Source of the DNA: Candidatus Thorarchaeota archaeon
GTDB lineage: Archaea > Asgardarchaeota > Thorarchaeia > Thorarchaeales > Thorarchaeaceae
Direction: 5' to 3'
Assembly (NCBI GenBank): GCA_008080745.1
Contig: SHMX01000008.1
Span: forward strand, 30,001 to 62,000
Length of the DNA: 32,000 nucleotides
Made by a program: the position numbers and the translations under genes. This document shows positions 1-6,555 of the stretch, one piece after another. The notes beneath the pieces are model-generated. The model saw only the letters and a program-made list of their open reading frames with translations, ran no database searches and had not been told where the DNA came from. The stretch's first letter is position 1; each line of letters starts with the position of its first letter.

Positions 1-1
1 A

Positions 2-1615
2 GCTTTTACATTGAATATGATCTCTCAAATGCAGACCATAATTTTTTCTGGTCCCTCAACAAGTCTCTTTTCTTTGGGATTTGTTGTCGACACCTATAGT
101 GTCATGATCTCTATCATTCTTGGAATTGGTCTGACTCTTTTTGCTGGTTATTTTCCTGCGTTATCGACAACTAGACAATCAGTTTCAAAAAGTCTCTCTG
201 GTGGAAATCCTTTTAGTAAATTAATCACTGATAATAAGCCCAAAAAAGAACTGAGGTTGGCCCATCTAATAATCACCATCGTGAGTTCGTTTATCATAGG
301 ATTTGTTATCCTACAACTCTTATCAGATATTTTTCACTTGGGAATCGTTTCAGAAGATTCTATAAGATTGGCAGCAATACCTGGGTTTCTGGTTCTATTT
401 GCTCTCCTCTCCCCGCGTATCTCAAATTCTAGTGGGATTCTCAAGATGTTAACCAAACGAAGCAAAGTTGTTATTCGATATTTATCCTCCAGAAATTCAC
501 GACGCAATACGTTATCTTCTCTTGTGATTTTTAATCTTTTTTGCGCTGTTACTGTATTATTCATTGCATCTACGAATGTTGGTTTCATGGTCACGGAATC
601 GTGGAAACAAAATATTGGATATCAAGCAACATCAGCTAATCTAGTGGCATATATGGATCCTCCAGTTGAAATGGATTTTCTAGATGCCGTTCAATCTTAC
701 TCTGAAGTAAGAACAGCCGTACCTATGAATCAGGATTTATATCATTTTACAAGTCAAGCATCTAGTCTTACAGGGCTTTTGTTAGCAACAGAACCTACGG
801 GTTTTGAACAGTTAGCATCATTAGCTATCCTTGAGTCTGTAAACGAATCTGCAGGTCTTGATATTCTACACATTTCAATGTCATGTGTTATTTCGGATGA
901 TACCGCTCTTGAATTAGATGTTACTCTGGGCGATACAATTCGAACTCACAATAATTATACCCTCTCAGTAGTTGGTATTTGTTCGTCCTCCATCGCAATA
1001 TTTGTTGTATCAGTAATCAATCCATTGTTTGCTATTGTGGGGACTGAAACTTGGTCCACTATACAAGAGGAAGATTTCAAAATCGGAAGTCTCCTCATAG
1101 AATCTACCAATCCCTCAAATACATTAGACACTCTTTCTGATATTTCTGGAGTACATCCTGTTTTAGTGTCGAATATTCTCGCTGATTACGAAACTGCGTT
1201 GTTCACTGTAGAACAGATGATTAATTCCTCTCTGATTGCACTTCTTGCTGTGACTTTTGCCAGCGCTCTACTTAGCTCTTGGTCTCTAGCTGCTTCTCGA
1301 AGAAGAGAGATTGGGATGCTATCCGCCTTTGGGATGACACGTGAGGAGATTGCAAAAACTCTGACGGCTGAAAGCACTGTGGCATTTGTAGGTGGGGTAT
1401 TGGCAGGATGTGTAGCTGGTTATTTAGTCCAATTATCAATCTCCCGTATCATAATTAGAATCACTGGTGACCTTTTCATTCTCATATCACCTCTTGTCAT
1501 TTTTCTCATAATTTTCTCACTCATTGTGTCAATTCTTGGTTCATACCTCACAGTGGCAAGAGTGACAAGAGAGAATGTGGTATCTTTACTCAGGGAAGAA
1601 AGTAGAACTGACTGA
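2..1615 (+). CDS. FtsX/MacB-type ABC transporter permease (5'-truncated by the window edge)
   Basis: Frame is open from base 2, so the true start lies upstream. Several TM segments, a ~200-aa extracytoplasmic domain, then a C-terminal FtsX-type motif (AASRRREIGMLSAFGMTREEIAKTLTAES) followed by TM helices. Confidence 0.85.
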   Translation, partial: AFTLNMISQMQTIIFSGPSTSLFSLGFVVDTYSVMISIILGIGLTLFAGYFPALSTTRQSVSKSLSGGNPFSKLITDNKPKKELRLAHLIITIVSSFIIGFVILQLLSDIFHLGIVSEDSIRLAAIPGFLVLFALLSPRISNSSGILKMLTKRSKVVIRYLSSRNSRRNTLSSLVIFNLFCAVTVLFIASTNVGFMVTESWKQNIGYQATSANLVAYMDPPVEMDFLDAVQSYSEVRTAVPMNQDLYHFTSQASSLTGLLLATEPTGFEQLASLAILESVNESAGLDILHISMSCVISDDTALELDVTLGDTIRTHNNYTLSVVGICSSSIAIFVVSVINPLFAIVGTETWSTIQEEDFKIGSLLIESTNPSNTLDTLSDISGVHPVLVSNILADYETALFTVEQMINSSLIALLAVTFASALLSSWSLAASRRREIGMLSAFGMTREEIAKTLTAESTVAFVGGVLAGCVAGYLVQLSISRIIIRITGDLFILISPLVIFLIIFSLIVSILGSYLTVARVTRENVVSLLREESRTD

Positions 1616-1673
1616 TTGTTTCCTCAGCTTCGTAATTACTGTAATCGATTGATTATGGATAAAATTCGGGAAG

Positions 1674-1704
1674 AATCCTTCTTCTTTTGAAAGAAGAATG
1701 GATT
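1674..1704. terminator. Hairpin between convergent transcription units, possible bidirectional terminator
   Basis: AATCC-TTCTTCTTT-tg-AAAGAAGAA-t-GGATT: 9-bp perfect inner stem plus 5-bp outer stem, located between the permease stop (1615) and the sORF3 stop (1729). Confidence 0.55.
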
Positions 1705-1728
1705 TGAAAATTTAAGAAAACTGAGTGC

Positions 1729-1833
1729 TCAGGTTGCTTCCAACGCGAGCACTTCACTGAAAGTGAGTTCACCACTCTTGCTAGAGTCCTGGTGTGTGGG
1801 AGTCGATTGCTTATCTTGAACGCTGGAGTTCAT
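1729..1833 (-). CDS. Micro-ORF 3, 34 aa, acidic (MNSSVQDKQSTPTHQDSSKSGELTFSEVLALEAT)
   Basis: ATG is preceded by GGAGATGA plus TCTCA, the same junction geometry as sORF2. The stop is followed by a CTGAG-ca-CTCAG palindrome and a T-rich tract on the minus strand. I recognise no homolog. Confidence 0.55.
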   Translation of the reverse strand: MNSSVQDKQSTPTHQDSSKSGELTFSEVLALEAT

Positions 1834-1838
1834 TGAGA

Positions 1839-1922
1839 TCATCTCCTGAAGTAAGCGTGGGTGATAGCCTTGGTCGAGGGGGACTTGGTGTCCTTGATGA
1901 TCTTGGTCTTGGATACTGCCAT
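1839..1922 (-). CDS. Micro-ORF 2, 27 aa, basic (MAVSKTKIIKDTKSPSTKAITHAYFRR)
   Basis: Hand translation. SD-like GGAGGTAA then TCTCA before the ATG. Shares STKA-x-x-[YH]AY with sORF1. All 5 Lys codons are AAG and all 3 Ile codons are ATC. Confidence 0.7.
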   Translation of the reverse strand: MAVSKTKIIKDTKSPSTKAITHAYFRR

Positions 1923-1927
1923 TGAGA

Positions 1928-2032
1928 TTACCTCCAGTATGTGTAAGCATAGGACAGAGCCTTGGTGCTCTGAGTCTTACGGGTGTTGTTCTTCTTCTCG
2001 GATTCAGTTCGGGAGTTCTTTGCAAACGCCAT
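1928..2032 (-). CDS. Micro-ORF 1, 34 aa, basic (MAFAKNSRTESEKKNNTRKTQSTKALSYAYTYWR)
   Basis: Hand translation. ATG lies 31 nt downstream of a TTATATAC TATA box, implying a near-leaderless mRNA. Paralogous C-terminus with sORF2. All 5 Lys codons are AAG and all 3 Asn codons are AAC. Confidence 0.7.
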   Translation of the reverse strand: MAFAKNSRTESEKKNNTRKTQSTKALSYAYTYWR

Positions 2033-2045
2033 GATTGTTCACAAC

Positions 2046-2071
2046 ATATACTACTCCAAGTTAGTATATAA
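2046..2071 (-). promoter_or_regulatory. Candidate TATA box (TTATATAC, 2071-2064) overlapped by an 8-bp perfect inverted repeat
   Basis: ATATACTA(2046-2053)-N8-TAGTATAT(2062-2069). The TATA position fits a transcription start near 2040, about 8 nt before the sORF1 ATG. Confidence 0.55.
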
Positions 2072-2101
2072 TGGAAAGCCACGATTATAGGACACACAAT
2101 G

Positions 2102-2120
2102 TAGTCACAAATTGTGACTA
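2102..2120. promoter_or_regulatory. Perfect 9-bp palindrome, candidate transcription-factor operator
   Basis: TAGTCACAA-a-TTGTGACTA, about 30 bp upstream of the micro-ORF TATA box. Confidence 0.5.
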
Positions 2121-2243
2121 TCTGCCCTATCATAACAATTACCTATCGGGGATAAACATTCTAATCTAGAAAAGTGATTAAGCTGATACTATTACACAAA
2201 ATAAACTAAACATAAAATCAGTTATTTGGTCTATTGTGCTAAT

Positions 2244-2279
2244 GGAAAGAAAAAGGTAGGGACTGACCCTTGCCAGTCC
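2244..2279 (-). terminator. Candidate terminator downstream of rubredoxin
   Basis: Minus strand GGACTG-N8-CAGTCC stem starting at the stop codon, followed by CCTTTTTCTTTCC. Confidence 0.45.
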
Positions 2280-2437
2280 TATAGTTTCTCGAAATCCTCT
2301 TTTCCAGCCCCGCACATTGGACATACCCAATCGTCTGGTATGTCTTCAAATTTTGTACCAGGGTCGACACCATTCTCAGGATCTCCCTTGTCTTCGTCAT
2401 AAACCCAACCACATACAAGACATTCCCATTTAGCCAT
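2279..2437 (-). CDS. rub: Rubredoxin (52 aa)
   Basis: [14 protein letters not shown]...DDWVCPMCG has two CxxCG motifs and the canonical length. GGAGA SD lies upstream of the ATG at 2437, so the start is shortened from the 73-aa track ORF. Confidence 0.95.
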
Positions 2438-2600
2438 ATGTTTGTCTCCAATTGACTTATTCTGGTCCTGAATCGGACCTGTATTCTTTTCAAATCGCAT
2501 TTTCAGATAAAAGGCTTGTCTTAGAGTGAAAAAGAATGGAAAATCAAAATCTAAAAAAGAAGAAAAGGACTCACAGCAAAAGCTGCAAGTCTAAGTTATT

Positions 2601-5024
2601 CTATGGTCTTCTACGAACGAGTAGGATTGCAACACCGATAACTGCTACTCCTCCGACACCAGCTGCAACATAGAGGGTGGGTATACCCAAAATGGATTCA
2701 GGCCAGAAACCTCCAGTGACCAACACTTGGTAACCTGGAGCGGACATAGCATAGCGAGCAGTTCCATCCCAACTCTCAGGGGTGGAGGCGTCAAAACTGT
2801 CTAGTGTCGTATTGAAGTAGACACAGATTGCAGGTATATCGGTATAGAGACCAGCATCGCTGGCAGGTACTGTGAAGGTTATTTCCCAGGTTGATCCTGC
2901 TGTTAAAGAGTCACGTGTCCAATAGAAATCACGGTCTCCGTCGAGTCCTGAGCTCATGCCATCAAGTACTTTGACATCATAGGCTGTTGCATCACCATAG
3001 TTGTGAACTGTTATGGTATAATCGAGAGTGCCACCTACTGGAACTTCCCGTGTGGTTGGACTCTTTGTTACAACTAAGTAGGGACCATCGAAATTAACTG
3101 CACTTGGATCAGCATCAAAGGTCATACTGAATGTATCAGTGTTGATATCTTCGAATACTGGAGTTGGGCTAGTGAACATGTCAACATTGATTGCACCAGC
3201 AAATCCAATTCCTGCCATTAGTGATGTACCAAGATCTGCCATGAGATAAGGTGTGATGTGCTCTTGGAGGTTGGTAGCATTAAGCATGTCTTGAACTGCA
3301 GCCTTAATAGCTGGAATGTCATCATTTGCCATCGCAGTCCATAGAGCTCCGAGCGTAAGCTCCCAATGCTCCTCTACAAAGGTTGCTATTGCCTCTTTAG
3401 ACTGGAATTCTGATGGTAAGTCTACAGCAGCAAAATCGCTTAGGAATGACTCTACACCATCAATGAATGTATTAAGATATCCCTCAAGTGCTACAGGGTC
3501 TGCGTAATAGTCGTTATCTAAGATGTTCAAAAGATTGTACGCATCGAAATAATCTATGAATGCCTTCACTATCGCTGCATATGGATTTTCTGAATACAGA
3601 CTATCATCAATTCTTGAAATCAAAGCATCTGAATTCAGTCCAGCCTGATTCATTATTTGAGCTATAAGGTCCATATTCAACTCTACTAATGCTGTTTCAG
3701 GAAGCTCTGAAAAGTCCAGATTCAAAATTGTCTGTCTTAAATCGGGCATGGGAACTACAGAGTTCCAGAGCTGCTCAATTATACTGTCAAACATTTTCGA
3801 ATCGATGCTTCCAATAGAATCATGAGCTTCCAGAGCTAATTGAGTGGGCATATAAGTTAAGACCGCTTGAATAACCTCAGCGAGAGTACTGTTCTCAGGA
3901 AGTGTTTTCCCTGGCAGAGTAATCTCAGTTGGAATTTCAAAGCTCTCATCTATGGTTGTCCATCCTGCTGGTAATCCATTGAAAGTCAAATGTGCTGGTG
4001 CTGCTCCAACTAACACCGATATTGATTCTGCTGTATCATCTTGATACATCTTATTCTGTAGATTTTCTGTAAATCCAACGTGATCCAATAGACTGTATTC
4101 TTCGTCACCTGAGACCGCCTCAACTTGTCCAGGAACATTCTGTGAGGCCTGAGCACCGACTACAAGGTTCATCTCACATTCATAGCTTGGATGACTTGCA
4201 TGGGGCCTATAATAGGGGTAACCAACATAACCTAGTAATGAAACAAGTGAACCTGGGGTATATTGTGATGGTCGATAAATTGCTGGAAATATGACCTCCG
4301 TGGTTGCTGTCAAGAGGTCTGTCCATTCAGATGCCCCGATGACATCCATAAATCCACCAAGTGTTGCGAGTCTTGACCTCATTGTGTTGAGAGCAGTAAC
4401 TCCTCCATCCGGACTTAAGATTGTCACATATGTCAATTCATAACCATAGTAATTGACCCATTCTGAACCTGTATATTCAGTATCAACTATTGTTTTCATG
4501 ATCTCCAATCTTTGTAGATCAATACTGAACGCTGATTCATAAAGGATAACGATATCTTCAGCGATGTCGATTGCTTCAGTGCTAGATACATTCTCATAAT
4601 ATTGGTCATCGAGCTCTGGAACAATCACTACAGGAGTGACTGTAAGTTGTAATACCGCCATTGCAGCGCCCATTGCACCATTTGGAAATGGTGTGGTTCC
4701 TCCTAAGTTAAATGTGATTCGTGATACATAGCCTTCTTCACTAGCCAATTGACTGTCAATTGCAGATTCGATAGCGTCTGTATGTGAATAGTCATAATAG
4801 GATGCATTTTGAACAGCACCCACTATGTCGTAGACTCCTCCCCATGCATCAACCATGGATCCTGCTACCTCAATAGTCTGTATATTAGGGTCCGTCGTGG
4901 CTGGCGAATGATTTGGAGTAACGACCATTTGTGGTGTGCTTATGAAGTTACCCGCAAATACTGGCATTACTAATGTAATAGCCATAAATACAGCTAACAA
5001 TAAGTTACTTTTTCGATAATTCAT
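2601..5024 (-). CDS. Large acidic secreted/cell-surface protein with a C-terminal DUF11-like Ig-fold domain and TM anchor
   Basis: N-terminal signal peptide (MNYRKSNLLLAVFMAITLVMPVFA), DUF11-like segment (VVTKSPTTREVPVGGTLDYTITVHNYGDATAYDVKVLD), C-terminal hydrophobic helix plus RRRP. GAGGAG SD upstream. Confidence 0.8.
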   Translation of the reverse strand: MNYRKSNLLLAVFMAITLVMPVFAGNFISTPQMVVTPNHSPATTDPNIQTIEVAGSMVDAWGGVYDIVGAVQNASYYDYSHTDAIESAIDSQLASEEGYVSRITFNLGGTTPFPNGAMGAAMAVLQLTVTPVVIVPELDDQYYENVSSTEAIDIAEDIVILYESAFSIDLQRLEIMKTIVDTEYTGSEWVNYYGYELTYVTILSPDGGVTALNTMRSRLATLGGFMDVIGASEWTDLLTATTEVIFPAIYRPSQYTPGSLVSLLGYVGYPYYRPHASHPSYECEMNLVVGAQASQNVPGQVEAVSGDEEYSLLDHVGFTENLQNKMYQDDTAESISVLVGAAPAHLTFNGLPAGWTTIDESFEIPTEITLPGKTLPENSTLAEVIQAVLTYMPTQLALEAHDSIGSIDSKMFDSIIEQLWNSVVPMPDLRQTILNLDFSELPETALVELNMDLIAQIMNQAGLNSDALISRIDDSLYSENPYAAIVKAFIDYFDAYNLLNILDNDYYADPVALEGYLNTFIDGVESFLSDFAAVDLPSEFQSKEAIATFVEEHWELTLGALWTAMANDDIPAIKAAVQDMLNATNLQEHITPYLMADLGTSLMAGIGFAGAINVDMFTSPTPVFEDINTDTFSMTFDADPSAVNFDGPYLVVTKSPTTREVPVGGTLDYTITVHNYGDATAYDVKVLDGMSSGLDGDRDFYWTRDSLTAGSTWEITFTVPASDAGLYTDIPAICVYFNTTLDSFDASTPESWDGTARYAMSAPGYQVLVTGGFWPESILGIPTLYVAAGVGGVAVIGVAILLVRRRP

Positions 5025-5211
5025 TAAGTATTCTCCTCGAATTTGAAATATGTAGGATAAGACTGATAGGTGGTGCGTCCCCTACATCAGTATCCATTAC
5101 TCGCGATGGTTTATGAACTTTTGCAGAAACCAGCCAATGACTAAATAGGTAATCGGATGTTAATAATAGAATTGAAAGAGCTGACAGTGATTCTGCCAGC
5201 TCTAGATTTAT

Positions 5212-6555
5212 CTACATAGATTCTTCTGATTGATCAGGCTCTTCTTCAGTTTCTGAATATTCTTCTGATTCTATAGGGGTTTCTTCGGATACCTTTTCGG
5301 TTTCAGAACTATCTGGCTCCATTTCAGTTTCTGGCTCATCCGAAGGCTTCTCCGGTTCTGATTCTTCGGGCTTGTGTTTTTCCTCTTCTTCAACTGGTTC
5401 GTGAACTGGTTTTTCTTCAGCTTTTACATCCGCGACTTTACCAATTCTTCGGAGATAGAATAGCTCCATAATAAGGGCAATCAAGGGGAAGATTAGTAGT
5501 TTGACCAAATCACTGATGGATTCAGCAAAGGCCTGTGCTGCTGGGTCCACAAGTATTGGGAACATTAAGTCTGCAAAGTAATATCCTATTGCCATGAAGA
5601 AGGTAATTCCAGCTGCGGTTTCTCCAGATATCTTGATTCTAGTATCAAGATTTTCGCGACTTGCGAGTGTCCTTCCAACAGAACTCATAGTATAAATTAC
5701 AAAGAAAATGGATATTGCAACTCCTACAAAATCCCAAGGTGTACCAGCGGGTTTGCCCGCATTGTATATGAAATATGCAGAATATAACGAAATAAACAAG
5801 CCCACCAACGCTACGTTATCAAGAGTGGTCTTATTCCGATGTCGTGCCATAATGAGGCCGTTTACGAAATTGAATCCTGAAGCTGCTAATGCACCCAAGA
5901 CGAGTAATCCTAGTAGTAATGCATTACCTGGAATCAAGAAATTAAGTAATTCTGGGTTTATGAAAACGACCGTGAATATGAGCGACCCAATTATTACAAA
6001 ATAACAGAAGAGATTACTCACACCAACAATCAACTTCATCCATCTTGACGTTGCTTGTGTATCCGCCATATCCGCATACTTCAATGCATTTCTTGTTGAT
6101 AGATATGCTTGGAATGCAATCCAACCAAAGAATGCAACTCCAAATATTATTCCGAGAAATATCGGTAATGCGAATAAAATGAACATTATCAAGATAATAC
6201 TACTAATAATTATCCATGGGATTAGATATAGTAGTGATTTCTTGTATGACTCTTCACTTGCAACATATTTTTGCATTCCCAAAGAGGATACAAGAGCTGT
6301 GAGCATAAAGAATACAGGCCATATTCCACCACCTAAAGCGGTTACAAATATGACTGCACCTTGTAGTGCTGGACTTACATCTAGTACTATCCTTCCTATT
6401 ACTGTTAAACCTGAGATTGCTATCAGAGCTATGATAAATACAATCGTCAGCCACTTCAGACGTTTTGACCTCAAAAACAACTTGAGGCCTTCAATGAATC
6501 CTGATATCACTGGTATTTCCATTACATTCGTCTCCTTGTACAAATAATCCATCAA
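5212..6555 (-). CDS. Hypothetical multipass membrane protein (~10 TM) with a Glu-rich low-complexity C-terminal tail
   Basis: About ten hydrophobic segments by eye, then ~75 aa rich in E/P/S. No family recognised. Confidence 0.8.
   Translation of the reverse strand: MMDYLYKETNVMEIPVISGFIEGLKLFLRSKRLKWLTIVFIIALIAISGLTVIGRIVLDVSPALQGAVIFVTALGGGIWPVFFMLTALVSSLGMQKYVASEESYKKSLLYLIPWIIISSIILIMFILFALPIFLGIIFGVAFFGWIAFQAYLSTRNALKYADMADTQATSRWMKLIVGVSNLFCYFVIIGSLIFTVVFINPELLNFLIPGNALLLGLLVLGALAASGFNFVNGLIMARHRNKTTLDNVALVGLFISLYSAYFIYNAGKPAGTPWDFVGVAISIFFVIYTMSSVGRTLASRENLDTRIKISGETAAGITFFMAIGYYFADLMFPILVDPAAQAFAESISDLVKLLIFPLIALIMELFYLRRIGKVADVKAEEKPVHEPVEEEEKHKPEESEPEKPSDEPETEMEPDSSETEKVSEETPIESEEYSETEEEPDQSEESM

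Follow-up and report, generated by a model that had tools for sequence, protein, structure and literature searches.

The locus considered here lies on the minus strand of a 32,000-nt stretch of Thorarchaeota DNA (hereafter the window, to whose positions the coordinates refer), where three consecutive ATG-started open reading frames (ORFs) encoding 34, 27 and 34 residues, each in its own frame, span positions 1729-2032. They had been pointed out from the letters alone, in what is called here the sequence-only reading, and their coordinates, lengths and frames were confirmed. The three ORFs are held in a cassette of ~400 bp with sharp ends (window about 1715-2120), which encodes two basic peptides of one type (A) followed by an acidic peptide of another (B). 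The gene-level description of this cassette is well supported, and the window stretch is very probably one of five dispersed copies of an autonomous ~400-bp unit that is near-universal in, and specific to, a single family of Thorarchaeota.

The two junctions between the cistrons are built alike (Table 1), and the features ascribed to them beforehand were all present: the TCTCA spacer, the stop codon lying inside the Shine-Dalgarno (SD) sequence, the 7/8 SD match and, at both junctions, a GGAG separated by 9 nt from the ATG. The 3' end of the host genome's 16S rRNA reads GGATCACCTCCT, so that GGAGGTGA represents a perfect SD, and it is to this sequence that each junction shows its 7/8 match. 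In the same genome, three copies of the 16S 3'-terminal sequence (...GCGGATGGATCA(C/T)CTCCTACGCATTTT) were observed within 3.5 kb at C9:10076-13550, besides the 16S end found at the end of contig C2, and they may represent fragmentary rRNA or a peculiarity of the assembly.

The first two ORFs are paralogues (...STKALSYAYTYWR versus ...STKAITHAYFRR). As had also been described, ORF1 has no SD and a TATA box lies 31 nt away, and T-rich sequence and a hairpin follow ORF3. Judged by its sequence, the region 2064-2101 would be the promoter, and the usual archaeal spacing between TATA box and start would place the onset of transcription ~10 nt before the first ATG, leaving a very short leader devoid of an SD. 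At the opposite end, the T-rich tract is a likely archaeal terminator. A longer ORF of 134 aa (2133-1729), which overlaps the three-ORF block in the frame of ORF3, was rejected as a true gene, being broken in paralogues and orthologues. Neither this overlap, nor the kinship of ORF1 and ORF2, nor the repetition of the unit figured in the sequence-only reading.

Table 1. Features of the cassette copy in the window
Feature	Positions	Strand	Description
Operator palindrome	2102..2120	-	TAGTCACAAtTTGTGACTA, core GTCACA-N3-TGTGAC; also the sharp 5' cassette boundary
Promoter region (putative)	2064..2101	-	Half-site-like repeats (GTGTCC; GTGGCT at 2082-2077) and TATA box TTATATA (2071-2065)
TATA-to-ATG stretch	2033..2063	-	31 nt between TATATAC and the first ATG; conserved CTTGTGAA motif; no SD
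Cistron 1	1928..2032	-	Basic A-type peptide, 34 aa, MAFAKNSRTESEKKNNTRKTQSTKALSYAYTYWR
Junction 1	1920..1935	-	SD GGAGGTAA (1935-1928) with stop TAA (1930-1928) inside; TCTCA spacer (5 nt); cistron 2 ATG (1922-1920)
Cistron 2	1839..1922	-	A-type paralogue, 27 aa, MAVSKTKIIKDTKSPSTKAITHAYFRR
Junction 2	1831..1846	-	SD GGAGATGA (1846-1839) with stop TGA (1841-1839) inside; TCTCA spacer (5 nt); cistron 3 ATG (1833-1831)
Cistron 3	1729..1833	-	Acidic B-type peptide, 34 aa; N-terminal part variable, C-terminal end ...SEVLALEAT invariant
RNA hairpin	1724..1753	-	12 bp; last eight codons of cistron 3, stop and 5 nt beyond
T-rich tract	1707..1723	-	CAGTTTTCTTAAATTTT; 3' boundary of the repeated unit

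Copies, distribution and reading frames of the cassette

A search of the window's own genome returned five copies of the cassette, 89-98% identical to each other, the window locus being one of these dispersed paralogues. When the copies were aligned, identity was seen to start at the palindrome TAGTCACAAATTGTGACTA (window 2120-2102) and to fade in the T-rich tail after ORF3, which is found in every copy; the flanks of the five copies are unrelated, and neither terminal inverted repeats nor a target-site duplication were seen in the alignment. Paralogues differ by 6 nt gained or lost in frame within ORF1; by a single-nucleotide indel in junction 1, through which ORF1 and ORF2 change their relative frame and TAA becomes TAG while both remain intact; and by the stop codon of junction 2, which can be TGA, TAA or TAG. 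This pattern of changes already indicated that the ORFs are coding. Downstream of the copy at C2:311748-312151, at ~0.7 kb and on the same strand, lies the best match to the EF-Tu/EF-1alpha domain (C2:310307-310999), which contains one in-frame TGA.

Beyond the host genome, a DNA search recovered the cassette from 21 of 24 further family genomes, and 16 genomes representing other families of the phylum gave no match. A profile built from 26 A-type peptides extended this picture, since it matched 73 of 76 family genomes and 15 of 16 genera (1-12 matches each, in records titled Thorarchaeota), whereas in 29 other families of the phylum, represented by 224 genomes, it gave a single marginal match (E = 0.005). 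Of more than 400 matches, 150 were listed, and almost every one of these lies in a stop-bounded open frame of ~34-38 aa. The B end was followed with a fully degenerate DNA pattern for EVLALEAT plus stop, scanned through one genome per species in 185,579 prokaryotic species: this yielded 51 loci. Of these, 47 belong to records bearing the title Thorarchaeota, Promethearchaeota or uncultured archaeon; the other four are bacterial, about as many as chance would give. From the distribution of the A profile and of the B end, the cassette is a hallmark of the Thorarchaeota lineage, and the host is itself one of these Asgard archaea, an Asgard origin having been presupposed in the sequence-only reading. 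Among sequencing runs, those listed as containing the cassette sequence were two DNA runs of one marine-sediment study and no RNA run.

The organization of the unit could be derived from 48 non-redundant cassettes of many genera, in which the order of cistrons was AAB (22), AA (15), AB (9), AAAB (1) or AAA (1). The A peptides (26-41 aa) follow the consensus MALAxNxRxxSEKKNxxxKxQSTxALxYAYxxxxR, with both ends conserved and a variable middle, and carry a mean net charge of +4.7 when encoded by the first cistron and +5.3 when encoded by later ones. The B peptide has a variable N-terminal part rich in Ser, Thr, Asp and Glu, an almost invariant end (LTxEEVLALEAT) and a mean net charge of -3.2. At most junctions the AGG codon of a terminal Arg and the stop codon together form GAGGTGA, GGAGGTAA or GGAGATAG, with the ATG 4-8 nt further on, and all three relative frames are found; the remaining junctions listed either span 83-151 nt or reflect in-frame ATGs further upstream that the ORF finder had chosen. 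The recurrence of this junction, like that of the promoter pattern described below, goes far beyond chance.

The codon-level pattern is most easily appreciated in the last eight codons of B, where variation is almost only synonymous: Glu is encoded by GAA/GAG, Leu by TTG/TTA/CTG/CTT/CTA, Ala by GCA/GCG/GCT and Thr by ACC/ACG/ACA/ACT, and the stops TGA, TAA and TAG are all used. Within the genus, the variable sites at first, second and third codon positions number 6/9/14 in ORF1, 2/1/10 in ORF2 and 6/7/14 in ORF3. A check of the dN/dS type on homologous loci, which the sequence-only reading had recommended, came out in favor of coding: considering all non-redundant sequences, the ratio of nonsynonymous to synonymous differences per site (pN/pS), uncorrected and with synonymous sites near saturation, was in frame 0.62 for cistron 1, 0.56 for cistron 2 and 0.73 for cistron 3, versus 0.85-1.11 in the two shifted frames (~1.0 for cistron 1 and ~1.06-1.09 for cistron 2). 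The same reading had named frame-breaking indels as evidence that would tell against its peptides, and the ORFs were found to stay intact through the junction indel and the stop swaps described above; moreover, relative frames differ among loci and ORF lengths are conserved.

Codon usage was also extremely biased. The GC content at third codon positions (GC3) amounts to 0.68, 0.81 and 0.56 in cistrons 1, 2 and 3, compared to 0.357 +/- 0.083 in the long ORFs of the genome, and the choice of codons is nearer to that of a set of thermosome, EF-2 and ribosomal-protein genes than in almost any long ORF (random 95-codon samples, P ~0.0014), although this high-expression reference set is crude, as it includes a few spurious ORFs and misses EF-1alpha. 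The GC3 result is independent of that set. As far as sequence comparison can tell, these observations show purifying selection at the protein level on the three reading frames, and the proposal of three tiny peptides made from one self-contained unit is upheld by the family-wide conservation of both the proteins and the junctions.

The absence of a known family, which had likewise been anticipated, was borne out by the database searches. The peptides gave no match in Pfam or NCBIfam at E up to 10, none in PADLOC at E up to 1, none in the ESM Atlas and, among PDB chains, a single chance-level match (uS11, E = 0.67); Rfam 15 gave none at E up to 1 in window 1-6000, on both strands. The notion that gene callers miss such peptides held for the three ORFs of the window, which occur in none of 15 billion collected predicted proteins, but not entirely for their relatives: a profile search of 1.84 billion cluster representatives yielded ~40 stand-alone proteins (29-59 aa), one of which is labelled 'hypothetical protein', and no longer or annotated relative. 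A search of the literature on small proteins of Thorarchaeota and Asgard archaea found nothing relevant. The cassette would thus represent a conserved small-protein operon of an undescribed family, in line with the earlier suggestion of an undescribed system.

A structured RNA had been named beforehand as the explanation that might replace coding. In fact, global RNA structure could be rejected, as shuffled sequences fold about as well as the complete putative transcript (z = -1.15), and the signal resides in the 96-nt segment 1680-1775 (z = -2.7), made of the hairpin 1753-1724, which is followed by CAGTTTTCTT, and neighbouring stems. In 56 distinct sequences the hairpin pairing holds in 91.5% of cells, versus 22-48% once the partners are slid. 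Covariation links the third position of the Val codon to a non-coding base beyond the stop (GC 34, AU 12, GU 6, UA 3) and that of a Leu codon to the second base of the stop itself (CG 44, UG 6, UA 3); while shuffle statistics overstate the significance because the sequences are related, the compensatory pattern is still plain. The amino acids of the Leu and loop codons are kept even where pairs are lost. Considering the covarying pairs together with these preserved residues, the 1724-1753 stretch is dual-coded, as the C-terminus of a peptide and as a 3' hairpin. A covarying structure does exist at the 3' end, yet it does not take the place of the coding function. Hairpin and T tract together would probably terminate a short, abundant mRNA and shield its 3' end. 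A second hairpin, at window 1674-1697 (TTCTTCTT...AAGAAGAA), lies outside the repeated unit, between the T tract and the convergent permease gene, and may be the terminator of the latter.

One copy of the cassette occupies a locus conserved family-wide, where genes for a histone-deacetylase-family protein, a URO-D-like protein and a PolX-type polymerase are followed by the cassette, a convergent small winged-helix gene, an amino-acid kinase gene and a class I aminoacyl-tRNA synthetase gene; in the host genome this PolX-linked copy is found on contig C2, at ~572.6 kb. The interval of the window between the FtsX permease and rubredoxin genes, which the sequence-only reading had put forward for synteny searches, proved not to be conserved, as in the sister species the site is empty (~154 nt versus 628 nt). 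Copies are 81-85% identical between the two species, and the PolX-linked positional orthologues 83%. Set against the 89-98% identity within the genome, these values point either to concerted evolution of the family or to its renewed amplification within each lineage. Beside the window copy, the rubredoxin-like ORF (2279-2500) adjoins an 807-aa ORF (2601-5024, minus strand) with an N-terminal hydrophobic segment and a C-terminal one followed by RRRP, which looks like a surface-anchored protein.

An alternative idea is that the unit could be a non-coding RNA or a non-autonomous element resembling miniature inverted-repeat or palindrome-associated transposable elements (MITE-/PATE-like), with a 5' palindrome, a 3' hairpin and ORFs that are incidental. 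Such an element would account for a ~400-bp repeat that is present five times with sharp boundaries, one marked by a palindrome and the other by a covarying hairpin, for the empty orthologous site in the sister species, for copies that cluster by genome and for the fact that, across genera, the best-conserved DNA is that of the 5' region and the 3' end. It fails, however, to account for the codon-level signature in three frames, for starts and stops kept through indels or for an ORF length conserved in most of the 150 matches listed of more than 400. The fold of the whole transcript is ordinary, with no Rfam match, the arms of the palindrome change without compensation (see below), the two ends show no sequence relationship and the copy alignment reveals no target-site duplication, all of which makes this explanation barely credible. 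The cassette may nonetheless propagate as DNA, which is compatible with coding.

The shared operator and the possible role of the peptides

The upstream region is the best-conserved DNA of the cassette. Its consensus, derived from 53 loci, is TAGTCACA-N3-TGTGAC-N8-GTGACCC-N6-GTGGCT-N4-(A/T)TATATAC-N31-ATG, where the half-site-like repeat GTGACCC, found in most genera, is replaced by GTGTCC in the window copy. The half-sites of the palindrome are near-invariant, the three central nucleotides vary freely, and in many loci one arm carries a C to A change that is not compensated in the other. This combination fits the operator of a dimeric protein, and a hairpin of RNA or DNA is disfavoured. In the host genome, GT(C/A)ACA-N3-TGTGAC occurs at seven sites, versus 0.9 expected: five at the cassettes, one before a unit composed of a peptide and a major facilitator superfamily (MFS) gene, and one before a gene with a bactofilin domain. 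A scan with a 55-nt promoter pattern found it in 35 of 40 other family genomes, with 1-7 copies each, and seven times in the host genome, whereas the reversed pattern, used as a control, gave none.

The two sites outside the cassettes deserve description. At C4:63943-65715 a full promoter precedes a 33-aa peptide (...ENLYYEYRWGV) and then a 479-aa MFS transporter, an arrangement kept in the sister species; the Tyr-rich peptides found upstream of the MFS gene are of 33-36 aa and share the core SPR(K/R)ENLYYEY, and GTGAC/GGTCA-like motifs recur between the two genes. At C3:523367-525044 the end of an HTH_45 winged-helix gene is separated by 29 nt from a short form of the operator/promoter, which is followed by the gene for a 411-aa bactofilin-domain protein. 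The HTH_45 protein (107 aa) is 63-99% identical across the family, and the HTH_45-operator-bactofilin arrangement is found in most genera of the family and not in other Asgard families. The short form is usually followed by the bactofilin-like gene, but in some Thorarchaeota genomes its place is taken by the gene for a conserved protein of ~370-390 aa (MSISLEETIALDLGFDTMKPIDEDV...), which contains a run rich in Arg as well as a hydrophobic segment and matches no Pfam family. By its position, the HTH_45 protein might tentatively be taken as a candidate for the regulator. The convergent winged-helix gene at the ancestral, PolX-linked locus shows no homology to the HTH_45 gene.

With regard to the peptides themselves, AlphaFold2 modelled the product of cistron 1 as a single helix (residues 6-33, mean pLDDT 68), and the prediction of a complex from A and B alignments gave no verdict (score 0.02). 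Mean Eisenberg hydrophobicities of -0.40 and -0.20 mark the peptides as strongly hydrophilic, the best helical hydrophobic moments over 14 residues (0.38 and 0.49) do not exceed those of shuffled sequences, and ORF1 and ORF2 have neither an N-terminal hydrophobic segment nor a leader or signal sequence. Being hydrophilic, not amphipathic and devoid of a signal sequence, the peptides are more readily assigned an intracellular role.

These properties bear directly on the alternative that the peptides are secreted and membrane-active, like leaderless multi-peptide bacteriocins or phenol-soluble modulins, and leave the cell through a transporter belonging to their own regulon. The idea is prompted by two to three tandem paralogous cationic peptides of ~30 aa without signal or leader, by the Tyr-rich peptide and MFS transporter driven by the same operator/promoter, also in the sister species, and by the putative FtsX-type permease (so labelled in the sequence-only reading) encoded next to the window copy. 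Nevertheless, the strong hydrophilicity and the unremarkable hydrophobic moment are difficult to reconcile with membrane activity, no exporter, transporter or immunity gene is conserved beside ~80 cassette loci, the MFS gene sharing the operator lies elsewhere in the genome, and the adjacency to the permease is not conserved, given the empty site of the sister species. Moreover, vertical inheritance throughout the family and a syntenic ancestral locus are unlike typical accessory bacteriocin loci, and no Pfam match was obtained. Hence, such a role is quite unlikely.

The same neighbourhoods argue against precursors of ribosomally synthesized and post-translationally modified peptides (RiPPs), dispersed as in the prochlorosins, in which a modifying enzyme with its gene elsewhere would act on the Tyr-rich motif at the C-terminus (YAYTYRR / AYFRR). 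Small, multicopy, dispersed genes with conserved terminal motifs and a variable middle could be expected of such precursors, and aromatic-rich C-termini are common to the third type of peptide (NLYYEY(Y)R...) found under the same operator. However, no gene for a radical-SAM, YcaO, P450 or lanthipeptide-type enzyme or for a protease recurs beside ~80 loci, where the recurrent neighbours are the PolX-type polymerase, URO-D-like, histone-deacetylase-family, winged-helix, amino-acid kinase and aminoacyl-tRNA synthetase genes, and a scan of 41 family genomes, including the host, found no modifying enzyme carrying the operator. In addition, the most conserved segments seem to sit where a hypervariable core would be expected, and the strong codon bias and the five copies suggest a bulk protein rather than a secondary metabolite. 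A precursor function must then be regarded as very unlikely.

The opposite charges of A and B, the palindromic operator and a multicopy state in which copy number differs between sister species could also evoke a small addiction module of the toxin-antitoxin type, in which toxicity of the basic peptides would be neutralized by the acidic one and the operator would serve for autoregulation. Against this, many cassettes (16 of 48) have no B, one copy is syntenic throughout the family, neither PADLOC nor Pfam (which includes toxin-antitoxin families) gave a match, the peptides are too small for a DNA-binding antitoxin domain, and the operator also controls unrelated genes. The probability left for a module of this kind is exceedingly small.

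The reading preferred here is that the peptides are probably abundant, inducible and hydrophilic small proteins that act together. In the model proposed, a dedicated dimeric transcription factor would turn on all the copies at the same time, and the almost leaderless mRNA would be translated from its 5' end. Terminating ribosomes would reinitiate, or ribosomes would be recruited, at the junctions where the SD contains the stop, and (re)initiation there would deliver A1, A2 and B in fixed proportions, with the 3' hairpin defining and protecting the 3' end of the short mRNA. Multiple copies, codon optimization and a single switch would result in a burst of small cytoplasmic proteins, in which the basic, helical A peptides with their Tyr/Arg tails might bind polyanions (nucleic acids or ribosomes) and the acidic B peptide might be their partner or neutralizer. 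This last step, the molecular function, is a guess, and one considerably more apt to be wrong than right. A still bolder version, in which a dedicated winged-helix regulator drives, by way of one operator, the cassette copies together with the bactofilin-like cytoskeletal protein and the transporters, and A and B assemble with nucleic acids or ribosomes to bring about a protective or dormancy-type state, is unlikely.

Several points weigh against this reading. As B is lacking in some cassettes (16 of 48), it is not an obligatory partner, and any link of the peptides to nucleic acids, or to any target, is conjectural. The junctions have gaps of +4 to +8 nt instead of the -4/-1 overlaps typical of tight termination-reinitiation, and so ordinary SD-driven initiation may suffice. 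The role proposed for the HTH_45 protein derives from adjacency alone and is weakened by a phyletic range wider than that of the cassette, since the gene occurs in cassette-less Asgard families where the operator does not follow it. The values of pN/pS are just moderately below 1, with saturated synonymous sites and variable middle segments, and near the 3' end RNA structure explains some of the conserved nucleotides. Finally, both coding and expression are argued from nucleotide and derived peptide sequences.

A family that is near-universal, multicopy, codon-optimized and operator-driven, with support that is unusually good for a case built on sequence, would, in any event, point to an abundant, regulated and uncharacterized piece of Thorarchaeota physiology, made of small proteins of a kind systematically missed by archaeal annotation. 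Were the dormancy-type version true, the cassette would be an archaeal functional counterpart of the small acid-soluble proteins (SASPs) of spores or of hibernation factors, and a new class of effectors in the closest prokaryotic relatives of eukaryotes. The unit also provides a compact natural example of putatively coupled 30-codon cistrons joined by SDs that contain the stop, as well as of codons doubling as a 3' RNA hairpin, and its operator and regulator candidate could be of use in Asgard genetics.

Comparison with known systems

The junctions can be compared with translationally coupled gene pairs. Reinitiation was found to couple two genes of Haloferax volcanii whose native distance is +1 nt; it decreased by 40-60% at 13-14 nt and was lost at 22-23 nt; closely spaced gene pairs were also enriched for subunits of heteromeric complexes (PMC10666635). 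Like the coupled pairs described by Huber et al. (2019, 2023; PMC6728339, PMC10666635), the cistrons of the cassette lie on the same strand at a very short distance, with an SD in the end of the upstream gene. In contrast, those pairs typically overlap by 4 or 1 nt, whereas the cassette has a conserved gap of 4-8 nt, the stop itself falls within the SD and the cistrons number only 27-36 codons, and the coupling proposed for it is read from the sequence. RiPP clusters and toxin-antitoxin modules share no clear defining feature with the cassette beyond small size.

A resemblance is found in the leaderless multi-peptide bacteriocins (such as aureocin A70, garvicin KS and enterocin L50) and in the psm-alpha operon of Staphylococcus aureus, where one short operon encodes 2-4 tandem paralogous cationic peptides of ~20-45 aa. 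Those peptides have a hydrophobic, amphipathic character and a linkage to ABC exporters or immunity genes. The cassette likewise encodes tandem cationic paralogues that lack a leader, but its peptides are hydrophilic and non-amphipathic, and their genes are multicopy and family-wide.

The closest analogue, in terms of organization, would be the alpha/beta-type SASP family of Bacillus and Clostridium, tiny hydrophilic proteins encoded by near-identical dispersed genes that have their own strong promoters, efficient ribosome-binding sites and terminator hairpins, respond to one regulator and look made for bulk production on signal. No sequence relationship links the two families, as indicated by the lack of a Pfam match, and the cassette peptides are archaeal, half the size of SASPs (27-36 aa) and encoded polycistronically with an acidic third peptide. 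The likeness is therefore one of organization only, in that both are multicopy families of dispersed units, which in the cassette are equipped with their own operator, TATA box, hairpin and T tract.

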